A DNA stretch of 64,000 bases from contig JAAZXB010000012.1 in the NCBI GenBank assembly GCA_014240375.1, positions 15,829-79,828 on the forward strand, in the 5' to 3' direction. The DNA comes from Planctomycetota bacterium. GTDB lineage: Bacteria > Planctomycetota > UBA8108 > UBA1146. Under the pieces are notes generated by a model. The model searched no databases, was not told the DNA's origin, and was given only the letters and a program-made list of their open reading frames with translations. The position numbers and the translations under genes are program-made. Positions 32,351 through 61,385 of the stretch are shown one piece after another (position 1 is the first letter of the stretch; each line of letters starts with the position of its first letter).

Positions 32351-34516
32351 TTAACGCCCATCTTTGGCCTCCTCAGAGACTTCTTCCTGAGCATTTTGCT
32401 GGGCTTCATCCTGGGCTCCATCTTGGACTTCATCCTGTTGCGGGATCGGTCTCACCAACTCGATCACACTGCTCGATGGCATCGACTGATCGGCGCGTCG
32501 TGCGATCAGCAGTTCACCACCCTCGAGCGGCAGCGGCGTGCCTCCCCTCGAACTCTCCGGCCACGGTAGAATTGCCAACGCGGAACCATCGCGCAGCGAG
32601 TGGACCTCGATACCGGCAGCGGAAGGGATCCAGATACGGCCGGAGAAGATCCTCGGTTGGCCCCTCAGCAGTGGCTCCTGGAGAGACGTGGGATCATCCT
32701 TTTCTGTCATCGATTGTGCCGCCAGGGCGATGGCCCACGGTCCCGCCACTACCTCACCATTGCGTGGGTCGAGACCGGTCAGGTGAATCGTACTTTTCCC
32801 CACCCCGATGCTCCCATCGAACAGCCAGGCGATGCCATCGACGATCCCCAGCAGCGAGGTCTGGCGCCCCGCCGGATGGCTCCAGCGGATGTGCCAGGAA
32901 TCTTTCTCGAGGGCGATCAACATCCGTCCATCTGGCGGCAATAGAAGCCACGGGATCGACTCATCCTCCGGCACCTGGATCGGTGAGTTGGAACGGGGTC
33001 GTAATCCCGGGTAGGCAAGGAAACGCTGGTTGCCCCAACGAATATCACTGAGGCTCGGCAACTCCTCGAAGCGCCATCGTGGCAGATAGAAGGTGGCACG
33101 GTGTGCTCCGCTACTGGCGGACAGGCATTCGATGGCTCCGCCGGAACGACTCACCAGAAGATCATCTCCAGATCGTGCCAGCGAAGCGGAGAGGATCTTG
33201 TCGCGAAGGTCATTGAGAGAGTGGGCTTCCAGTTCTCGTACCTCGAGTTGACGTCGCCACAATTCCTTGCCGTGGGCCAGATCGAAGGAGAATACCCACG
33301 TCTCGAGGGTCGACCACCCGCGTGTCGCCAGCAGCCATAGCCGATCGCCTTCGATCAGCGGCACCGGACAGGCACTGAATCCTTCGCTGGCGATGGGGGC
33401 GACCCAGGAGGAGCTGGGAGGTTTCTGAGGATCTGGAATTTCGAGCACCACCGCTTCCAGCCAGCCAAGATCTTTCCACGGCCCGCTCTCGATAATGATG
33501 TTGGTGGAAGGTCGCTGATATTGGCGTGGCGTCCGAAGCAGGAAGACGCAGCGATCACCGCTACTGACCGGAATCTCGGGAACACTGATGAACGGCAGTT
33601 GGGTGCGACCGGGGGACTCATCGGGGCGTGGGACCTGCCATTGCCACGCTTCTCGGGTCGGTTCATCGAGATCGATCGCCACTACACGATGGCCGTTGCC
33701 GAAGAGTGCCGTCCTCTGGCCCAGTAGCGGGAACAGGTCCGACAGCGGATGGCGCCGCGTCCACACCCGGGCTTTGCGATGGGCGGTCGCCTCCGGACCT
33801 GTCTCCGGCATCGGGATCGCCAGTGAACCCTCGACGCGGCTTGCCGCCGACTGTACCGGTGGTTGGATCAACGGTCCGTCACTGCGTCTCCAGGGCCCTT
33901 CCAGCGGCGGCGTACCCGCCAGCCAGCGCAGCCAATTGGGGTCGATCCCTGCACCAATTCCAGGTCGCTGCAGGAGTGCCCAGGCGGCACTTCGATCGGC
34001 TCGCTCGAGCGCCTCTTGCAGGGCACGATTTGCCTCGATCGCTCGATCGGGTTGCCAGACCAGCGGATGGGCTCCATCGATGGGAATCGGACCGAGTCGT
34101 TTGAGGGCCACATCGAGAAAGCCATCCGGCAGCGACCGGCCAAATCGTTCCAGTTGCCGAGAGGTACGCCCGATGCGAAGGGTTCCACGGCTGCCGATCG
34201 AGATGGTCCGCAGTGGAAAGATCAGCGATCCATGCCGCGTCTCGAGCCAGTCTTGCAACTGCTGGGCTGCCGCGGCAGGATTCTCGCCGGCTCGTCGGGA
34301 GATCTGCAACAGCGAATCCACATCTTGGTGATGAGGGATTCGCCCGGGGCCAGCGGCGGGGGGGCCAGGCAACTCGTACTCCTGTGGAACTACCGCCTGT
34401 GGATCAGCCTGTGGATCAGCCTGTGGATCAGCCTGTGGATCGGCACTCCACACGGTCAGCAGTGGCAGCAGCAGCCACGTCACCAGCAGCAGGGTGAACT
34501 TCAAGCGGAAAACCAT
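32351..34516 (-). CDS. Secreted hypothetical protein with (ADPQ)4 repeat after the signal peptide; possible beta-propeller
   Basis: Start MVFRLKFTLLLVTWLLLPLLTVWS is a signal peptide, followed by ADPQADPQADPQADPQ. A C-terminal acidic QDEVQDGAQDEAQQNAQEE tail is present. No family recognised. Confidence 0.65.
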   Translation of the reverse strand: MVFRLKFTLLLVTWLLLPLLTVWSADPQADPQADPQADPQAVVPQEYELPGPPAAGPGRIPHHQDVDSLLQISRRAGENPAAAAQQLQDWLETRHGSLIFPLRTISIGSRGTLRIGRTSRQLERFGRSLPDGFLDVALKRLGPIPIDGAHPLVWQPDRAIEANRALQEALERADRSAAWALLQRPGIGAGIDPNWLRWLAGTPPLEGPWRRSDGPLIQPPVQSAASRVEGSLAIPMPETGPEATAHRKARVWTRRHPLSDLFPLLGQRTALFGNGHRVVAIDLDEPTREAWQWQVPRPDESPGRTQLPFISVPEIPVSSGDRCVFLLRTPRQYQRPSTNIIIESGPWKDLGWLEAVVLEIPDPQKPPSSSWVAPIASEGFSACPVPLIEGDRLWLLATRGWSTLETWVFSFDLAHGKELWRRQLEVRELEAHSLNDLRDKILSASLARSGDDLLVSRSGGAIECLSASSGAHRATFYLPRWRFEELPSLSDIRWGNQRFLAYPGLRPRSNSPIQVPEDESIPWLLLPPDGRMLIALEKDSWHIRWSHPAGRQTSLLGIVDGIAWLFDGSIGVGKSTIHLTGLDPRNGEVVAGPWAIALAAQSMTEKDDPTSLQEPLLRGQPRIFSGRIWIPSAAGIEVHSLRDGSALAILPWPESSRGGTPLPLEGGELLIARRADQSMPSSSVIELVRPIPQQDEVQDGAQDEAQQNAQEEVSEEAKDGR
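34397..34444 (-). repeat. 12-bp tandem repeat x4 (encodes ADPQ x4)
   Basis: +strand ctgtggatcagc x4. Confidence 0.9.
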
Positions 34517-34731
34517 GCCTCTCTCTAGACCTCTTCTTGCCACTTCTGGCGATTGAAAGCGTTATCGAACTGGATCACTGAACTGCGGCGATCGCGCTGT
34601 GCGGATGACTCGAAGTCTCCGTTTGGGCCCACATCACGACCCCATCCTTGCGTGTGAAACGGCTTCGCGCTACCAGGGTTGTTCCCGATACAGGTGCCCG
34701 ATAGGCTCGCCGTTTCGGAAAGGCAGATACC

Positions 34732-35220
34732 GTGACCGAATCCAAAACTCCATCGACGCGGCTGATGCTCGCCTCCGAGGCCCAGACCGAGGCGCTAGGT
34801 GAGCGGATCGGCGCTGTGGCCCGGGCCGGCCTGGTGGTGGGCCTGTACGGGGATCTGGGAGCTGGAAAAACGGCTCTGGTGCGTGGTCTGGCCCGGGGAA
34901 TGGCTCTCGATGGCCGGGTTCGCAGCCCTACCTTTACCATCGCCTCACTCCACCGAGGAGTGGTGCCACTGCTTCATGTCGACGCCTATCGCCTTGAGGA
35001 TCCCACCGAACTGGCGCTTCACGGCTGGCAGGAATGGCATCAAGAGGGGGTGATCGCGGTGGAATGGGCGCAACGGGTCGAATCGATGCTCCCACCGCGA
35101 CATCTGAGGATCGAACTGTCTCATCGGGGTGAGGAACTTCGTCAGGGCCACATCCAGGTGCGGGGAGAGGGGCAAGACGATGCGGTGGAGCAGGCTTTTC
35201 TTGCCGCGATCGTTTGCTGA
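34732..35220 (+). CDS. tsaE: tRNA t6A37 biosynthesis ATPase TsaE
   Basis: GDLGAGKT P-loop, RSPTFTI and HVDAYRL motifs. GTG start; alternative ATG 34765. Confidence 0.8.
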   Translation: MTESKTPSTRLMLASEAQTEALGERIGAVARAGLVVGLYGDLGAGKTALVRGLARGMALDGRVRSPTFTIASLHRGVVPLLHVDAYRLEDPTELALHGWQEWHQEGVIAVEWAQRVESMLPPRHLRIELSHRGEELRQGHIQVRGEGQDDAVEQAFLAAIVC

Positions 35221-35305
35221 AGCAACTTGAAAGCAATCTCGTGGGCTTCACAATCAGTGGGCCCGACATTTCCATTTCCCCAGACCCGGGCAGGATCGAG
35301 AAACG

Positions 35306-35578
35306 ATGCCGAGACGCCGCCATGGTGGAGCCGGGAGAGGCTCCGAACCCGATGACGCCACCGATCAAGATGCCGCAGGCTGGCTTCTCGATGGCCTGGC
35401 GATCCGTCCGCCTCTCGAGGAGTTCCGGCGACTGTTCGAGATGAAGAAGAGAGCTTTTGAAGGCAAGGTCGATGCCGAGAGTTTACGCAAGTACGAGCAG
35501 GCGCGTCGTCTCGGAGAGAAATTCATCGCAGAGCAGGACTACGACCAGGAGACGGGTCCGAGGGGGGCGTCTTGCTGA
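35306..35578 (+). CDS. Small hypothetical ORF (doubtful)
   Basis: 90 codons with no recognisable family and rare codons (tta, aga). It overlaps the likely ribosome binding site and start of the next gene. It may simply be a 5' UTR. Confidence 0.2.
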   Translation: MPRRRHGGAGRGSEPDDATDQDAAGWLLDGLAIRPPLEEFRRLFEMKKRAFEGKVDAESLRKYEQARRLGEKFIAEQDYDQETGPRGASC

Positions 35579-38500
35579 TTCGCAGCCTTCGAGCCGAGGG
35601 ATTCTTGAAGTTCAGAAAACTTCGTATCGATAATTTTCCCCGTCGCGCCCTGATCGGAATTGTCGGACCCAACGAGAGTGGCAAATCGAGTATCGGGCAA
35701 CTGTTCCAGTTCGCTCTCTTTGGTTCAACCCATCACATGGTGCGCGGTTCGATCACCGACTTGATTCACTGGGACGATGATCATTGTGTGGTCGAACTCG
35801 ATTTCGAACATGCCGATGAAGGGTATCGGATCTGGCGCGAGATGGACCGCTTCGGCACCTCCTTTGCGCGACTGGTTCGGATCGACAAGTCGGGGGGGCC
35901 GCCGGGTGAAGAGATCGCCTCGGGAGCACTCCAGGTGCAGCGAGAAGTGCAGAGACGCTTTCACCTCGGCGCCGGAGAAACGATGCACTCCTTCTACCTG
36001 GCAGAGCGGGAATCGGTCACCACCCCGGAGCAGTTCAGATCCTTCCTCGATCGGGTGGCGGGAATCGATGTGCTCCAGGGAGCACGGGGAGAAGCGAGTC
36101 AGGCCCTCGATCTGCTGGAGAAAGATTTCACCTCGGTGCAGGAAGAGATCCACCGCAATGACCTGCACATTCAGCGTCTACAACCCAATATCGACAAGAT
36201 TCCAGATCTCGAAGAGGAACTGAAGGTCAGAGATTCCAAGGTCGAGGAAGCTCGCGCTCACGGGCGTGAGATGCAACGACTGGTGGAGCAGGAACTGAAA
36301 AAGCGTGACGAGGTTCAGAAGATCCAGCTCGAATTGCGATCCATCGATACTCTGATCGCTTCCGAGTCGCTGAGAAAGAGCAATGGCTTGATCGGGTTGC
36401 TACAAGCGGACCTGGCTCCGGAGCCTTTGCGCGACCAGGATTCCATCATCACTCCGCTGCGCGATGGATTGGAGCAGGTCTCCGATGCATGCAAGATCCG
36501 CGCAGAACTCGAGCAATGCGTGATCGACTCCATCGAGTCGTTAAAAGCACGTCTCGAAGGAGATCAAGAGGGGTCGATTGGCACCGAGAAAGAACTCCAG
36601 GAGCAAGAGATTCGCAACTCCTCGACCTCGCGGGTGCGCCATCGCGCAGGAGCCTTGGTGCTCTTCATCGCTGGCTTGGTGGGGATGGTGCTTGGCCTCG
36701 ATCTTGAACTGGACTGGGGAATCGGCCAGAAGATTCAATTCCTGGCCCAGATGGAGCCGGAAAAGGGGATCGGATTTCTGGTGGCTGCATTCTTTGCCTT
36801 CCTCTTCGTCGCTGCCTGTTGGTTGTCGACCCGCGCATCTCAATGTCTTCAGAAGACCTTCGATGCTCAGGGCATCCTGTCGCGATTGCAGATGGAGCAG
36901 AATGTCGGAAACAGTTCACTGGAAGCGGCGAGGGCGCATGTGTCCCGTTCATCGGGTGGGCTCGATCCTGGCGACGACATCGGAGAATGTCGGGTCCGTT
37001 CTGTACAAGAACACCTGGAATCTTTACGTGCTGCTCGCCGTGAGATCCACGGAGTCATGGGCGATCTGCCAGGCGAATTCTTGGCGGGGAAGTTGAAGAG
37101 TGCACTCGATCGAGTGCGCGCGACCCTCAAGGAGCGTCGTAAGTCGATGGATGAGTCCAGTGACTCGGTCAAACGCCTACGCTCCAAGAGTGATCGCATC
37201 CAGTCGGAGATTCGTGAGTATCAGAATCAGGACGGGCGTCGCCAGGCGTTGTCCGAGGTTTCTGACGGGAGTCGCAAGAAGTCACTGGCGATTCGCGATG
37301 AGATGGACATTCATCGACTGCTGGTCGAGTTGCTCGATGAAACCATCGAGTCGGTGCGGATGCGTGCTGGTCCCAGTCTTGGCAAGGGACTGTGCCGACT
37401 GCTGCCGCATCTGACCGGCGGCCGCTACCGTGATGCTCAGGTGACGCCAGAGTTCGAGATCCGTCTCTTCACTGGAGATAAGAGTGATTTTCTCCAGACT
37501 CATGAGCTTTCAGGGGGCACCTTGCAGGGGCTTTCCTTTGGCTTCCGTCTCGCCTTTGCCCAGGCTTTTGTGCGGGCGGTCACGGGTGCGCCACAGTTCC
37601 TCTTCCTCGATGAACCGTTCCCAGCGATGGACCGTGAGCGAGTCTTGCGAACCCTCCAGGCACTTCCACGTTTGAGTCAAGAATTGAGCCAGGTGATCGT
37701 TGCGCATCCCGATCTGGATCCCGCAGCTCGTCAGAGTTTTGATCTGTTGATCGAGACCGATCAATCTTCCGACCGGCTCGAGATCGATCTGGAGGATATG
37801 TCTCTGCCAGAGGTCTCTGCCCCTCGACGAGAACCGGTACAGATGAGCCCCACGATCCCCAGAAGTGAACCTGCCGCTCGTCGGGAGTCCGCGTCACGTC
37901 GAGAGTCCAGACCACGTCGCGATTCTGCTCCGCATCGCGAGTCTGCGCCACGTCGCGATTCTGCTCCGCATCGCGAGTCTGCTTCGCGAGGAGAGTCTGC
38001 GCCACGTCGGGAGTCTGCGCCACGTCGGGAGTCAGCGCCGCGTCGCGATTCTGCTCCGCGAGGAGAGTCTGCGCCACGTCGGGAGTCTGCGCCACGTCGA
38101 GAGTCTGCGCCACGTCGAGAGTCAGCGCCGCGTCGCGATTCTGCTCCGCGAGGAGAGTCTGCGCCGCGAGGAGAGTCTGCGCCGCGTCGCGATTCTACTC
38201 CGCGAGGAGAGTCCGCGTCACGTCGGGAGTCTGCTCCGCGTCGAGAGCCTTCTCCGCGTCGCGATTCTGCTCCGCGTCGAGAAGCCGGTTCCGGTCGAGA
38301 GTCCGCGGGACCACCGATCGAGTCGGATGACACCACTCGGCCCGCCAGATCCAGCGGCGACGATGGTCGCCGCCGTAGAGAAGCACGCAGTAACGAAGCA
38401 CGCAGTAACGAAGCACGCAGTAACGAAGCACGCAGTAACGAAGCACGCAGTAACGAAGCACGCAGTAACGAAGCACGCAGTAACGAAGCACGCAGTAACG

Positions 38501-39150
38501 ACCGACGAGAGCCTTCGCAAACGGCTCCATCGGACAAAGCAGTCGACGATTCGAGGAGACGTCGGAAGCCGCAGTCGCCCGCCGCATCGTCCGCCGCATC
38601 GTCCGCCGCATCGTCCGCTGCATCGTCGGCAGAATCGTCGGCAGAATCGTCGGCAGAATCGTCGGCAGAATCGTCGGCAGAATCGAAACGTGAAATGAGT
38701 TCGCGTAAGCCTGTCCGGGATGGCCGATCGAACGCCACTCCCGAGAGGAGGGGATCCGCGGCCCGCGAACCGCAACCCCAGACCACGGAAGATGCCGCCG
38801 AGTCTGGTACGCGCCGCCCGGCAAAACCGTCGAAACGACCTGCAGAGAAACGACCTGCAGAGAAACAATCTGCAGAGAAACGACCTGCAGAGAAACAATC
38901 TGCAGAGAAACGACCTGCAGAGAGACGACCATCCCCCGACTGGCCGAGTTACGCCGACTCGAAGCGAGGGCCCGACCCGGAGGCGAAGCCTCGTTCGCCT
39001 GCGGCGGCGAAGCCTGCCCGCAAGGAGTCGCGACAGCAGAAGCCTCCCGCTGCGGCACCCGAGTCCCCTCCGGCGGCCTCGACCCCTCCGCCAAAACGAT
39101 CTGCCATCAGCGACTTCAAGCCCGATGACTGGACGATTCCGGAAGCATGA
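35572..39150 (+). CDS. Rad50/SbcC/SMC-like ABC ATPase with transmembrane hairpin in the coiled-coil region and a ~400-aa low-complexity repeat tail
   Basis: TTG start with GAGGGGGG 6 nt upstream. The N-terminal head has LKFRKLRIDNFP...IVGPNESGKSS (Walker A, AAA_23/SMC_N-type). The C-terminal head has THELSGGTLQG (signature motif) and FLFLDEPF (Walker B/D-loop). Between them are coiled-coil-like segments and two hydrophobic helices (ALVLFIAGLVGMVLGL, IGFLVAAFFAFLFVAACWL) near nt 36640-36840. The tail is encoded by four tandem-repeat arrays: ESAPRR-like about 24 times, EARSN 8 times, AASS/AESS 9 times, KRPAEKQSAE about 3 times. Confidence 0.8.
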   Translation: MLIRSLRAEGFLKFRKLRIDNFPRRALIGIVGPNESGKSSIGQLFQFALFGSTHHMVRGSITDLIHWDDDHCVVELDFEHADEGYRIWREMDRFGTSFARLVRIDKSGGPPGEEIASGALQVQREVQRRFHLGAGETMHSFYLAERESVTTPEQFRSFLDRVAGIDVLQGARGEASQALDLLEKDFTSVQEEIHRNDLHIQRLQPNIDKIPDLEEELKVRDSKVEEARAHGREMQRLVEQELKKRDEVQKIQLELRSIDTLIASESLRKSNGLIGLLQADLAPEPLRDQDSIITPLRDGLEQVSDACKIRAELEQCVIDSIESLKARLEGDQEGSIGTEKELQEQEIRNSSTSRVRHRAGALVLFIAGLVGMVLGLDLELDWGIGQKIQFLAQMEPEKGIGFLVAAFFAFLFVAACWLSTRASQCLQKTFDAQGILSRLQMEQNVGNSSLEAARAHVSRSSGGLDPGDDIGECRVRSVQEHLESLRAARREIHGVMGDLPGEFLAGKLKSALDRVRATLKERRKSMDESSDSVKRLRSKSDRIQSEIREYQNQDGRRQALSEVSDGSRKKSLAIRDEMDIHRLLVELLDETIESVRMRAGPSLGKGLCRLLPHLTGGRYRDAQVTPEFEIRLFTGDKSDFLQTHELSGGTLQGLSFGFRLAFAQAFVRAVTGAPQFLFLDEPFPAMDRERVLRTLQALPRLSQELSQVIVAHPDLDPAARQSFDLLIETDQSSDRLEIDLEDMSLPEVSAPRREPVQMSPTIPRSEPAARRESASRRESRPRRDSAPHRESAPRRDSAPHRESASRGESAPRRESAPRRESAPRRDSAPRGESAPRRESAPRRESAPRRESAPRRDSAPRGESAPRGESAPRRDSTPRGESASRRESAPRREPSPRRDSAPRREAGSGRESAGPPIESDDTTRPARSSGDDGRRRREARSNEARSNEARSNEARSNEARSNEARSNEARSNEARSNDRREPSQTAPSDKAVDDSRRRRKPQSPAASSAASSAASSAASSAESSAESSAESSAESSAESKREMSSRKPVRDGRSNATPERRGSAAREPQPQTTEDAAESGTRRPAKPSKRPAEKRPAEKQSAEKRPAEKQSAEKRPAERRPSPDWPSYADSKRGPDPEAKPRSPAAAKPARKESRQQKPPAAAPESPPAASTPPPKRSAISDFKPDDWTIPEA
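37870..38930 (+). repeat. Four adjacent in-frame tandem repeat arrays (18-bp x~24 at ~37870-38300; 15-bp gaagcacgcagtaac x8 at 38379-38500; 12-bp gccgcatcgtcc/gcagaatcgtcg x9 at 38581-38686; 15/30-bp cctgcagagaaacga/caatct at 38836-38926)
   Basis: Read directly from the sequence. The unit lengths are all multiples of 3. The long minus-strand ORFs across this region are repeat artifacts. Confidence 0.9.
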
Positions 39151-39911
39151 GCCCATCAGGAACTGCCACGGTGATCGATTCGACATCCACTCGTCGATGC
39201 ATCATCGCAGCGGACTTGCACTGCGATGGGTCGGCGCGGCGGCTGGCGATGCTGGAGGCTCTTTTGCGCAGCTGTCGCCAGCTGGATGCGAGTTGTTACC
39301 TGCTCGGAGACCTGTTTGACGTCTGGCTTGGACCGGGACAGTTGGCTCTCCAGCAGACGCGTCGGGAAGTGGAAGCCTTGCAACGTGCGGTGGCTGCGAA
39401 CATCGATGTGGTGGTGATTCCGGGAAATCGCGACTTCTTGCTCGACGAAGCGTTCGAACGTGCCACCGGGGTGGTTGTCGGGGGCGATCATCTATTGCTC
39501 GAGACCGGCGATCAACGGTGGCACCTGTCCCATGGAGACCTGTTCGGTACAGCCGATGTCGGATACCAGCGCCTTCGCAAGATCTTGCGAAGCGGACCGT
39601 TCCGAATGCTGGTTCGCCACATGCCGCTGCTGTTGTGTCGCGCCCTCGCCACTTTTTTGCGTCGTCGTTCTCGCAAATCTTTGCAGCGCAAGGATCCGGC
39701 GCGGATTCAGCCGGACCTGCAGGTGATCGGGCAACTGGTGGAGAGCGGTTTTGACCAGGTGGTGTGTGGCCACTACCATCGACCCAGTGAGGAATTTCTG
39801 GAGCGGGGGGGGAGTTGCGGAATCTTCACCGTTCTCGAGGCGTTCGAGGATCGCGGGGCCCATCTCTTCATCGAGGACGGAGTGGTGGAACTCCGATACC
39901 TTCCGTCATGA
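39147..39911 (+). CDS. LpxH-like calcineurin-type metallophosphoesterase (UDP-2,3-diacylglucosamine hydrolase family)
   Basis: The motifs are AADLHCDG, LGDLFDVWLG, GNRDFLLDE, SHGDLF and GHYHR. The GDLFDxW plus GNRD pattern matches LpxH rather than SbcD/Mre11, which have GDxFD plus GNHD. The start overlaps the ATPase stop (ATGA); an alternative GTG lies about 24 nt downstream. Confidence 0.7.
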   Translation: MSPSGTATVIDSTSTRRCIIAADLHCDGSARRLAMLEALLRSCRQLDASCYLLGDLFDVWLGPGQLALQQTRREVEALQRAVAANIDVVVIPGNRDFLLDEAFERATGVVVGGDHLLLETGDQRWHLSHGDLFGTADVGYQRLRKILRSGPFRMLVRHMPLLLCRALATFLRRRSRKSLQRKDPARIQPDLQVIGQLVESGFDQVVCGHYHRPSEEFLERGGSCGIFTVLEAFEDRGAHLFIEDGVVELRYLPS

Positions 39912-39948
39912 GCCGTGCAAGAATGCCTTCGGTGGCACGGAACCGCCG

Positions 39949-40944
39949 ATGATCGGACTCAAGGCTCCACCACTGGCGGTCATCGTCGCAGGACCGACTT
40001 GCGGTGGCAAATCGCAACTGGCGCAGAAGATCGCCGAGCAGATGAACTGGCCGGTACATGTGATGGACTCGATGAAGGTCTATCGAGGTATGGATATCGG
40101 CAGCGCCAAGCCGTCTGAGGAGCTACGGCAGGGGCGTCCCTTCACGATGGTTGATCTGGTCGACCCCTGGCAAGAGTTCACCGTGTTCGACTGGTTACAG
40201 GCGTTGGCCGCCCAGGTCCCCACCGATCAGCCCTGGCTCTTCAGCGGTGGCACCAGTTTCTATCTACACGCCTTGCGAGAGGGGATCTTTGCCGGGCCCG
40301 GGTCCGATCCGCAGATCCGTCAACGTCTCGCCCACCAGGGACAGACCTCACCTGCGGGTACTCTCCATCAGCGCCTGGTGGAGGTCGATCCGGAAGTCGC
40401 ACGACAGATCCACCCCAACAACCACAAGCGCATCATCCGGGCGCTGGAGGTGTATGAGATCAGTGGCGAACCGATCACCGTGTGGCACCAACGACGGGTT
40501 CCCATCATCGATGCCCGGCGGACACTTCTACTGGGGGTGCATCGCCAGCGAGAAGAGATCCATCAGAGGATCGCTCGGCGCATCGAGGCGATGTTCGAGG
40601 CGGGTTGGGTGGCGGAGGTGGAGCAGTTACTGGCGAATCACGATCCTCCCTGGAGTCATACCGCGGCCCAATCGATCGGGTACCAGCAAATCGCCAAGGC
40701 ACTACAAGACGGCACCGACCCCCACCAACAAGTTGAATCGATCCAGGTCAAGACTCGTGCGCTGGTTCGATCCCAGATGGCCTGGGCTCGCAAGTTGCCC
40801 ATCGAATGGTATTCACCTGAAGAGGCAGCACTCGCTCTCGAGCGAGTGCAACAGGTGATGTCCGAGGTGGAGTCAGGAGGCGAGATCACTGCCGCTCCCG
40901 CCAGCCGATTGAAGTTGCATGAGAATCAGGAGAATCAGGATTGA
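39949..40944 (+). CDS. miaA: tRNA dimethylallyltransferase
   Basis: VIVAGPTCGGKSQLA P-loop, VMDSMKVYRGMDIGSAKP, and the overall MiaA layout. The upstream 66 codons of the tracked ORF were trimmed. Confidence 0.85.
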   Translation: MIGLKAPPLAVIVAGPTCGGKSQLAQKIAEQMNWPVHVMDSMKVYRGMDIGSAKPSEELRQGRPFTMVDLVDPWQEFTVFDWLQALAAQVPTDQPWLFSGGTSFYLHALREGIFAGPGSDPQIRQRLAHQGQTSPAGTLHQRLVEVDPEVARQIHPNNHKRIIRALEVYEISGEPITVWHQRRVPIIDARRTLLLGVHRQREEIHQRIARRIEAMFEAGWVAEVEQLLANHDPPWSHTAAQSIGYQQIAKALQDGTDPHQQVESIQVKTRALVRSQMAWARKLPIEWYSPEEAALALERVQQVMSEVESGGEITAAPASRLKLHENQENQD

Positions 40945-59801: not shown

Positions 59802-61385
59802 TCACTCCAACGACTTGTCGAGAAGCCGTTGATAAGCCTTTGTTCCCACCAGCATCTTGTTTTTCTTGGCGTAGTCGATCGCCATCTTGCCGTCGTTGTT
59901 GCGGGCGAGGGGATCGGCGCCCTTGTCGAGGAGTGCCTGAACGATCTCGGGGCTGGAGGAGAACTGAGCGGTGTACATCAGCGGGGTCATGCCGAGTGGA
60001 TCGGCGACATCCAGCCCAGCGCCGCTGTCGATGAGCAGCTTCACGATCTCGGGGGGCGAGGAGTTGCCGGTGGCGAAAAGCAGCGGCGTCATGCCGAGCG
60101 GATCACTGGCATCCAGTTCAGCGCCGCTGTCGATGAGTAACTTCACGATCTCGGCGCTGGTGGAGTGCGCTGCGGCGACGATCAGCGGGGTCATGTCGAA
60201 CTTGTTTCTGGCTTCCAGTTCAGCGCCGTTGTCGATGAGCAACTTGACGATCTCGGGGGTCGAGGAGTAGGCTGCGGCTTGCATCAGCGGGGTCGAGTCG
60301 GCACTGGAGGATGGGTCTCTGGCGAGCATCTGCGGGATCTTGTCGTCGTTGTTGTTGGCGTTGTTGCCCCTGGCTTCCAGTTCAGCGCCCTCATCCAGGA
60401 GAACTTTTACGATCTCGGGGCTGGTGGAGTGACGGGCGGCGATCATCAACGGGGTCGCGCCGGCGTTGCTCCTGGCTTCCAGTTCAGCGCCGCCGTCGAT
60501 GAACCGCTTCACGATCTCGGCGCTGGAGGAGTGTGCTGCGGCCAACATCAGCGGTGTCCTGCCCGAGCCGTCGTCAATCCTGGCTTCCAGATCAGCGCCC
60601 TTGTCGATGAGCAGCGTTGCGATCTCGGCGCTGGAGGAGTAACGAGCGGTGTACATCAGCGGAGTCATCCCCTTGTTGTTCTTGACCTCGACCCGGGCAC
60701 CCCTGTCGAGGAGCATCTGAACGATCTCGGGTTCTGAGGATCGCGCCGAGGCGAAATGGAGCGGCGTCATATCAATATTACTGCTGGTCTGGACATCGGC
60801 GCCCTTGTCGAGAAGCAGCTGAACGATTTCTGGCATGTAGGAATGCTGTACAGCGAACATCAACGGCGTCATGCCGCCCTTGTTTCGGTCGACGATCTGG
60901 GCACCGTGATCGAGCAGCATCTGAACGATCTCGATGGTCCTGGAATGTGCGACGGAGTACATCAATGCGGTCCCGCCCCCGTCGCTTCTGTTGTCGATCC
61001 TGGCGCCCCTGTCGAGCAGTAATTGAACCATCTCTGGAATATGGGATCGTGCTGCGGCAGCCATCAGCGGGGTCCCACCATCCGGGCCTCTGGCATCGAT
61101 CTGGGCACCCCTGTCGAGCAGGTACTCTGCGATCTTCGGGTTTGAAGAGCGTTGAGCGGCAAACCACAGCGGCGTCAAACTGTTCTTGTTCCTCGCATCG
61201 ATCACCGCACCCTCATCGACCAGCTGCTGGACCAGGGCTAAATTGTGAGTGCTGGCGGCGATGTGCAGTGGAGTGTCGTTGAAGCGGTTGGGTTCCTGAG
61301 CTTCAGTGGTGGCGACGAGGAATAGCATTGCCAGTAAGCAGGTCTGGGCTCGATCGAAAATTCGACTCTCGCTCTCTGGTTTCAT
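59802..61385 (-). CDS. Secreted ankyrin-repeat protein (~14 ANK repeats)
   Basis: Signal-like N-terminus (CLLAMLFLVATTEAQ), then reiterated 33-aa units of the form G(M/A)TPL(M/H).AA....S.EIV(K/Q)LL(I/L)D.GA.(L/I)(D/E)A(R/S). The strongly periodic DNA gives many overlapping spurious ORFs on both strands. Confidence 0.85.
   Translation of the reverse strand: MKPESESRIFDRAQTCLLAMLFLVATTEAQEPNRFNDTPLHIAASTHNLALVQQLVDEGAVIDARNKNSLTPLWFAAQRSSNPKIAEYLLDRGAQIDARGPDGGTPLMAAAARSHIPEMVQLLLDRGARIDNRSDGGGTALMYSVAHSRTIEIVQMLLDHGAQIVDRNKGGMTPLMFAVQHSYMPEIVQLLLDKGADVQTSSNIDMTPLHFASARSSEPEIVQMLLDRGARVEVKNNKGMTPLMYTARYSSSAEIATLLIDKGADLEARIDDGSGRTPLMLAAAHSSSAEIVKRFIDGGAELEARSNAGATPLMIAARHSTSPEIVKVLLDEGAELEARGNNANNNDDKIPQMLARDPSSSADSTPLMQAAAYSSTPEIVKLLIDNGAELEARNKFDMTPLIVAAAHSTSAEIVKLLIDSGAELDASDPLGMTPLLFATGNSSPPEIVKLLIDSGAGLDVADPLGMTPLMYTAQFSSSPEIVQALLDKGADPLARNNDGKMAIDYAKKNKMLVGTKAYQRLLDKSLE

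Follow-up and report, generated by a model that had tools for sequence, protein, structure and literature searches.

Based on how its tandem repeats behave among close relatives and on a short peptide that is retained at its very end, we consider it likely that the long C-terminal tail of a Rad50/SbcC-like ATPase from an uncultured member of the Planctomycetota is a slippage-prone, length-tolerant, disordered cytoplasmic linker which presents a conserved C-terminal docking peptide. The gene lies within 64,000 nucleotides of contig JAAZXB010000012.1 (GenBank assembly GCA_014240375.1), the whole of which was analysed and is here called the window. Its tail contains four tandem repeat arrays, all of which are real and coding. 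The feature as such is of an ordinary kind, a variable disordered tether ending in a conserved tip, though it is an extreme and rapidly evolving example. The gene and the parts of its tail that matter for this reading are given below, with residues counted in amino acids (aa).

35572..39150, plus strand: complete gene with TTG start and TGA stop, encoding a 1192-aa Rad50/SbcC-like ABC (ATP-binding cassette) ATPase with a long C-terminal tail
37792..39147, plus strand: C-terminal tail, aa 741-1192, charged, of low complexity and largely predicted to be disordered
37879..38310, plus strand: array 1, 24 units of 18 bp, R-R/G-E/D-S-A-P, with 17 distinct DNA variants
38380..38501, plus strand: array 2, 15-bp period, 8.1 copies, 100% identical, EARSN eight times (Tandem Repeats Finder, TRF)
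38575..38685, plus strand: array 3, 12-bp period, 9.2 copies, four AASS followed by five AESS (TRF)
38832..38930, plus strand: array 4, 15-bp period, 6.6 copies, KRPAE/KQSAE (TRF)
39115..39147, plus strand: conserved peptide FKPDDWTIPEA, aa 1182-1192, candidate docking motif, reading ...SDFKPDDWTIPEA

All four arrays lie in frame within the single open reading frame (ORF) 35572-39150 on the plus strand, the product of which ends in ...PPKRSAISDFKPDDWTIPEA before the stop codon. An earlier reading, made from the letters of the DNA only and called the sequence-only reading hereafter, had described four back-to-back in-frame arrays encoding a tail of about 400 residues, with unit lengths that are all multiples of three; it was silent on the tail being part of a 1192-aa ATPase. 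The arrays themselves, with units of 18, 15, 12 and 15 bp, were found again by TRF, which gave a best score of 435 and covered 736 bases, far above 100 dinucleotide-preserving shuffles of 37800-39150, which scored no higher than 47 and had no more than 72 bases in repeats. The description of the arrays as strictly adjacent did not survive, as they are parted by unique spacers of 69, 73 and 146 bp, with another 220 bp, including the stop codon, after array 4; the tail is also somewhat longer than had been stated, with about 452 residues, 254 of which belong to the arrays. TRF places array 1 at 37879-38282 with 22.4 copies, 76% matches and a higher-order periodicity of 54, 72 and 90 bp. When taken in register, its units comprise RRESAP (six times), RRDSAP (five), RGESAP (four) and otherwise single variants, and its exact self-matches include 47 bp at an offset of 90 and 43 bp at an offset of 72.

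The rest of the window has few tandem repeats, and short ones, with the exception of a region with a period of 102-108 bp (59941-60666, TRF scores 296-365), which probably encodes a protein repeat domain of about 34-36 residues per repeat in another gene. A BamB/PQQ-like gene on the minus strand (32351-34543) was seen to carry a perfect in-frame 12-bp repeat at 34395-34441, giving about four copies of ADPQ near the N-terminus of a protein whose C-terminus is acidic and Q/E-rich, so that in-frame short repeats are not confined to the ATPase in this genome. A non-coding RNA or an element resembling CRISPR (clustered regularly interspaced short palindromic repeats) was also considered for the arrays and rejected, since no Rfam family reaches threshold in 35000-40000 and the repeats within the arrays are not separated by spacers.

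The units of array 1 differ from each other mostly in the third codon position, to which 54 of the 75 minor-allele counts belong. When codons are compared pairwise, roughly half of the differences are synonymous in the frame of the ORF, vs. about 10% in four other frames. The plus-strand frame was chosen because it continues unbroken from the conserved head across the 1.3 kb of repeats and into the conserved C-terminal peptide. An antisense ORF of 341 aa (37761-38786, minus strand), which has its third codon positions in common with the plus-strand frame, was set aside as a shadow ORF, since it does not join on to any conserved domain.

From the FDxxIxT anchor onwards, 91% of the tail residues are disorder-promoting and 4% are W/F/Y/I/L/V/C/M, the charged fraction is 0.39 and the net charge is +24. 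In an AlphaFold2 (AF2) model of the full-length protein, built from a 22-sequence alignment, the predicted local distance difference test score (pLDDT) is below 50 at aa 751-932 and 977-1192, that is, over most of the tail with the exception of the EARSN array. The sequence-only reading had compared the hexapeptide repeats with eukaryotic arginine/serine (RS/SR) domains. The tail does share with these domains an Arg/Ser-rich, repetitive and disordered character, but the resemblance proved superficial: the repeating unit is RRESAP, and RS/SR dipeptides are nearly absent from array 1, numbering 4 in its 144 aa and 20 in the whole 452-aa tail.

The side of the membrane on which the tail lies can be judged from a pair of hydrophobic segments in the middle of the protein:

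36646..36825, plus strand: a pair of hydrophobic helices at aa ~359-378 and ~399-418, peaking at 2.27 and 2.55 in a Kyte-Doolittle profile over 19 residues

The AF2 model has continuous helices at 336-380 and 400-459. The hydrophobic segments stand between long antiparallel helices, and two such segments were found at matching positions in most of 45 distant homologues scanned. A membrane hairpin is predicted here, at the tip of the coiled coil, where Rad50 has its zinc hook. Because the ATPase head is cytoplasmic and the number of predicted membrane helices is even (a two-helix hairpin), we infer that the tail is cytoplasmic as well.

Close relatives were sought by a word-indexed protein search, which returned only uncultured Planctomycetota proteins, and scans of genome and metagenome contigs brought the collection to 31 loci. 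Three close relatives (L023, L024 and L004) have complete or nearly complete tails. With the window as reference, their arrays compare as follows, those which replace EARSN and A[AE]SS having been read off the translated tails:

Window: hexapeptide 24, EARSN 8, A[AE]SS 8-9, KxxAE 6-7, no other arrays
L023 (97% core identity): hexapeptide 22-23, EARSN 0, A[AE]SS 2-3, KxxAE 3, xxDK about 6
L024 (95% core identity): hexapeptide 16, EARSN 0, A[AE]SS 0 (essentially none), KxxAE 12, SSDK 3, RPS[DN] 6
L004 (95% core identity; contig stops short of the C-terminal motif): hexapeptide 17, EARSN 0, A[AE]SS 0 (essentially none), KxxAE 15, others as in L024

Both copy number and array content differ among these relatives, whose indels correspond to whole arrays, while the unique anchor stretches in between can be aligned well. 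L004 and L024, with 99.25% DNA identity over 5.4 kb, differ by exactly one 18-bp unit and three 15-bp units, which bears out the earlier suggestion that copy number can change without a frameshift. In the clade at 61% identity, L028 and L029 have cores that are 99.67% identical and large tail indels in their own, different arrays; L010 and L026, whose tails are array-free, are 99.3% identical with zero gaps. The tails of more distant orthologues hold unrelated repeats (RPRPPRQKEES, DPKPV, SEDRSI/SERPSR, TRDSK[PT] and PAAKQ). Comparison of relatives therefore upholds the proposal of a hypervariable linker. Phase variation in the ON/OFF sense is excluded, as all units are multiples of 3.

In the wider family, for which an exhaustive HMMER search gave 244 representatives at E <= 1e-30, tails of this kind are exceptional: among 163 N-terminally complete homologues the median tail length is 7 aa, 107 have 20 aa or fewer, and the 452 aa of the window protein are the longest. 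Because most homologues have a short tail or none, the tail is a lineage-specific add-on, and its growth, like the turnover of its arrays, is that of a fast-evolving, repeat-driven appendage.

The tail is thus made up largely of four in-frame minisatellites with units of 12-18 bp. We think it most likely that replication slippage or unequal recombination makes these arrays expand and contract, arise and vanish. Such changes would be tolerated because each unit is a multiple of three and there is no fold in this region that they could disrupt. The tail most likely acts as a flexible tether, tolerant of change in length and sequence, with one conserved job, which would be to offer F-x-P-D-D-W-[T/V]-I-P(-E-A) either to a partner or to the head of the protein itself.

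Differences in copy number between near-identical strains would also be a property of a classical contingency locus, in which slippage switches or grades a surface or immunity-related protein under diversifying selection, and the head does show weak similarity to SMC-like defence ATPases (in PADLOC, mad3 at 2.9e-23 over aa 518-731 and LmuB at 3e-16, generic and confined to the head). We nevertheless consider a contingency locus extremely improbable. With units that are multiples of 3 and lie wholly within the coding region there is no frameshift switch; the logic of surface antigens is inapplicable because the tail, following a cytoplasmic head and an even number of membrane helices, would not be exposed; the gene stands in a conserved housekeeping block (TsaE, small ORF, ATPase, LpxH-like, MiaA, LysS) and not in a mobile island; and partner genes of a defence system are not present.

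The tether reading gains its second half from the end of the protein. At each locus that reaches the end of the gene, [DE][DE]W[TV][IL]P occurs once, either immediately before the stop codon or two residues before it. The tip is kept in every complete orthologue with a core identity of at least ~58-61%, and DDW[TV]IP(EA) is invariant there, in the forms F-[DN]-P-D-D-W-T-I-P-E-A, ...DSDDWTIPGA and ...FNPDDWVIP, with the rest of the tails being unalignable. Further out, P0025 (43% identity) ends in ...EEWTLPPEE. Within the window and the fetched loci, a motif of the DDW[TV]IP type was found nowhere but at the end of the ATPase gene. The unique C-terminal peptide, which the sequence-only reading had put forward as a candidate partner-binding motif, is the sole conserved element of the tail and keeps its place as a candidate. 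Because a lone conserved peptide here terminates a disordered region that is not conserved, the pattern of conservation fits a docking motif for a partner. One 82%-identity orthologue (L006, ~2690-2762) reads ...FDPDWIRS... instead of ...FDPDDWTIPEA owing to an apparent frameshift before the tip, probably an assembly error.

Several observations weigh against the view of the tail as a linker with a docking tip. The antisense frame that shares third positions with the ORF scores equally well in the synonymous test. Neither the length nor the net charge of orthologue tails is conserved (79-463 aa and -30 to +25, respectively), which fits a passive tether and, equally, a tail with little function beyond its tip. 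The AF2 model renders the EARSN array as a helix (aa 932-975, with pLDDT of 65-90 as 10-residue block means), and given this prediction the tail may not be uniformly disordered; we gave it little weight because the repeat is perfect and the alignment shallow. The docking element is not universal, because the remaining clade at 37-46% identity mostly lacks DDW[TV]IP, having (S)xFLAGIFD near its end.

Further points on the same side concern assembly. All compared sequences appear to be metagenome assemblies or contigs of metagenome-assembled genomes; exact copy numbers are therefore uncertain, most of all that of the 8 EARSN units, and where two assemblies differ by a few units, noise from assembly could in principle be the cause. 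Taken to its end, this argument would make the arrays or their lengths artefacts of short-read assembly, through expansion, collapse or chimera, and the variation noise. Indeed, six related contigs end in arrays, five of them within array 1 (L002, L003, L005, L025 and L030) and L038 within the perfect EARSN repeat of array 2, which at 122 bp is near the span limit of 150-bp reads, if such reads are assumed. Against this, the window, L023, L024 and L004 hold 16-24 units of array 1 between identical unique anchors, and L038, a separate contig of the same strain that is 99.95% identical and gap-free, reproduces all 24 of these units base for base and in the same order. Moreover, the 17 distinct unit variants provide enough internal markers for assembly, the frame is kept to the conserved terminus in all complete cases, and the relatives differ by whole unlike arrays (EARSN vs. 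xxDK vs. RPSD), which neither collapse nor expansion can yield. Differences in which arrays exist thus cannot be assembly noise, there is good support for array 1 existing at about the size given, and we find a wholesale artefact very unlikely.

It may also be asked whether the repeats are functional in themselves. On that account the tail would be a multivalent basic polyelectrolyte, binding nucleic acid, polyphosphate or acidic lipid, forming condensates or serving as a multi-site substrate of a Ser/Thr kinase, with copy number tuning its valency. RRxS is a consensus of the basophilic-kinase type, and the tail has 17 RRxS sites besides its strongly positive charge, which in the closest relatives amounts to +20 to +25. 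The synonymous variation among the units suggests that the RRESAP peptide is maintained, and four more distant loci have a Ser/Thr kinase gene directly upstream of the small ORF and the ATPase:

L033, 3395-4651: Ser/Thr kinase gene
L035, 3362-4579: Ser/Thr kinase gene
L037, 3400-4647: Ser/Thr kinase gene
L039, 3198-4538: Ser/Thr kinase gene, with an FHA-domain gene nearby

Yet the repeat sequences are not conserved beyond relatives at ~89-95%, other orthologues having unrelated repeats or none; the sign of the net charge flips across the family, and most members of the family have no tail at all. A kinase gene is found neither at the corresponding position beside the ATPase gene nor anywhere in the 64-kb window. 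The synonymous signal is common to the antisense frame, and conservation within the arrays may reflect recent duplication. We therefore regard repeats with a function of their own as rather unlikely, and return to the slippage-prone tether with its conserved tip as the reading that we favour.

The protein which carries this tail is a membrane-anchored Rad50/SbcC-like ATPase of an uncultured marine Planctomycetota lineage, the anchor being predicted. Its first ~740 residues are an SMC-type ABC ATPase (Pfam: AAA_23, 5.9e-13; SMC_N, 3e-10) with a head split into two lobes:

35572..36219, plus strand: N-terminal head lobe, aa 1-216, matching Rad50 chain 5f3w_B at 1e-11 (phmmer against the PDB), with Walker A GPNESGKS at aa 32-39
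37306..37773, plus strand: C-terminal head lobe, aa 579-734, with matches to Rad50 C-lobes in the PDB, the signature LSGG (aa 646) and Walker B FLFLDE (aa 676)

The top NCBIfam matches are Rad50 models, down to 3e-16, the best of them at 58.5 bits vs. a cut-off of 1000, and Foldseek with the AF2 model ranks Rad50 on top, followed by Smc5/6, MukB and JetC. Orthologues uniformly start with MLIRSLRAEGF. A CxxC zinc hook was not found anywhere in the 1192 residues. The family amounts to ~250 clusters at 50% identity, and in the members that were checked a predicted hairpin replaces the hook. An exact-sequence look-up returned no record identical to the full 1192-aa protein, and our literature search on Planctomycetes yielded no relevant account of a membrane-anchored protein of the SMC-like or Rad50-like type.

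Two relatives deserve separate mention. In L038, at ~3041 (equivalent to window 37612-37614), GAA is changed to TAA at the Walker B glutamate (FLFLD*P), and the product has been called as a protein of 680 aa (P0001); the stop may be genuine and inactivate the protein, or may stem from an error in sequencing. P0030, a very distant SMC-like protein (925 aa, 92 bits), likewise turns hydrophobic midway along its coiled coil but has no disordered tail, and SMC-like ATPases with a membrane hairpin may be more widespread than the family studied here.

The ATPase gene overlaps both of its neighbours:

35306..35578, plus strand: small conserved ORF of 90 aa, with a 7-nt overlap with the start of the ATPase gene
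39147-39911, plus strand: LpxH-like metallophosphoesterase gene, with an ATGA overlap with the stop of the ATPase gene (PRK05340, 1.6e-35, below cut-off)

Wherever a locus reaches far enough upstream, also in clades with 30-46% ATPase identity, a matching small ORF directly precedes the ATPase; in the distant clades it has the same 7-nt overlap, with 42% identity over 48 aa. No match to it was found in Pfam, NCBIfam or PADLOC. Its product is probably a co-translated partner subunit. The block of BamB-like (on the minus strand), TsaE, small ORF, ATPase, LpxH-like metallophosphoesterase, MiaA and LysS is syntenic throughout the lineage; distant clades keep TsaE upstream and the small ORF, most of the distant lineages examined having the Ser/Thr kinase gene right before the latter, and do not keep the adjacency of the phosphoesterase, which is lost in the distant member P0052. 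The ATGA overlap suggests translational coupling of the ATPase and the phosphoesterase in the window. An SbcCD-like nuclease pair was considered for these two genes and rejected, the downstream gene being LpxH-like and its adjacency gone in P0052. A defence system was rejected too, with the similarity in PADLOC being generic, partner genes missing and housekeeping neighbours syntenic across the lineage. The synteny of the housekeeping block and the loss of the phosphoesterase adjacency speak against both an SbcCD pair and a mobile defence island.

A more ambitious picture, which we hold to be distinctly unlikely, would have the small ORF product and the hairpin-anchored ATPase form a membrane-tethered machine of the SMC type in Planctomycetota, linking for example the chromosome or another polymer to the membrane. 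To this the marine lineage would have added a fast-evolving, RRxS-rich arm, whose DDW[TV]IP tip recruits a partner and whose repeat number and phosphorylation tune reach or valency. In any case, the host ATPase family is arguably more interesting than the tail and the better target for follow-up, and the conserved C-terminal peptide gives an experimental handle on the partner of the ATPase. A warning also follows from this locus, as regions of this kind break metagenome assemblies and gene calls.

Among known systems, Rad50/SbcC, SMC-like ABC ATPases that act in repairing DNA double-strand breaks, is the best match by both sequence and fold, with its split two-lobe head bearing Walker A, LSGG and Walker B and its long antiparallel helices between the lobes. 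The window protein differs in having two hydrophobic helices instead of the CxxC hook, in falling far below the NCBIfam cut-offs for Rad50, and in the absence of an Mre11/SbcD partner from its locus, where the neighbouring metallophosphoesterase is LpxH-like. Rad50 and SbcC are not known to have a C-terminal tail of this sort, long, disordered and with a motif at its end. With Lamassu LmuB, mad3 and PbeC the ATPase shares generic similarity of the head only, and it has neither their partner genes nor a variable island. SbcE (YhaN) of Bacillus subtilis is SMC-like, closest to SbcC and without CxxC, and has a hydrophobic, insoluble central domain between its coiled coils (PMC2811018). The hydrophobic centre between coiled-coil arms recalls the window protein as an architectural analogy only: the AAA_27 match of 16.6 bits covers aa 3-55 only and stays below the cut-off of 22, no gene for a nuclease of the SbcF/YhaO type is present among the neighbours of the window protein, and PMC2811018 mentions no disordered tail on SbcE.

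The tail itself has its parallels outside this superfamily. SSB has a disordered, low-complexity linker and, at its C-terminus, an acidic tip that recruits partners (PMC7145534). The window protein resembles it in a low-complexity linker which ends in an acidic/hydrophobic extreme C-terminal tip. In Escherichia coli the SSB tip reads ...DDDIPF, and DDW[TV]IP is loosely similar to it, a likeness that may serve as a lead; unlike SSB, however, the window protein has no OB fold and lacks the final Phe, an essential residue of the SSB tip. In FtsZ, a variable disordered linker is followed by a conserved C-terminal peptide (PMC9586301; bioRxiv 10.1101/171280). The common plan is a folded NTPase core, a poorly conserved disordered linker of variable length and a short conserved end peptide. 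FtsZ is an unrelated protein, however, and the linker of the window protein derives from recent tandem repeats and varies between near-identical strains. This makes it a clear natural case of a bacterial cytoplasmic disordered linker that is rebuilt from in-frame minisatellites over a very short timescale while the end peptide stays fixed, and a useful case study of how disordered linkers evolve.

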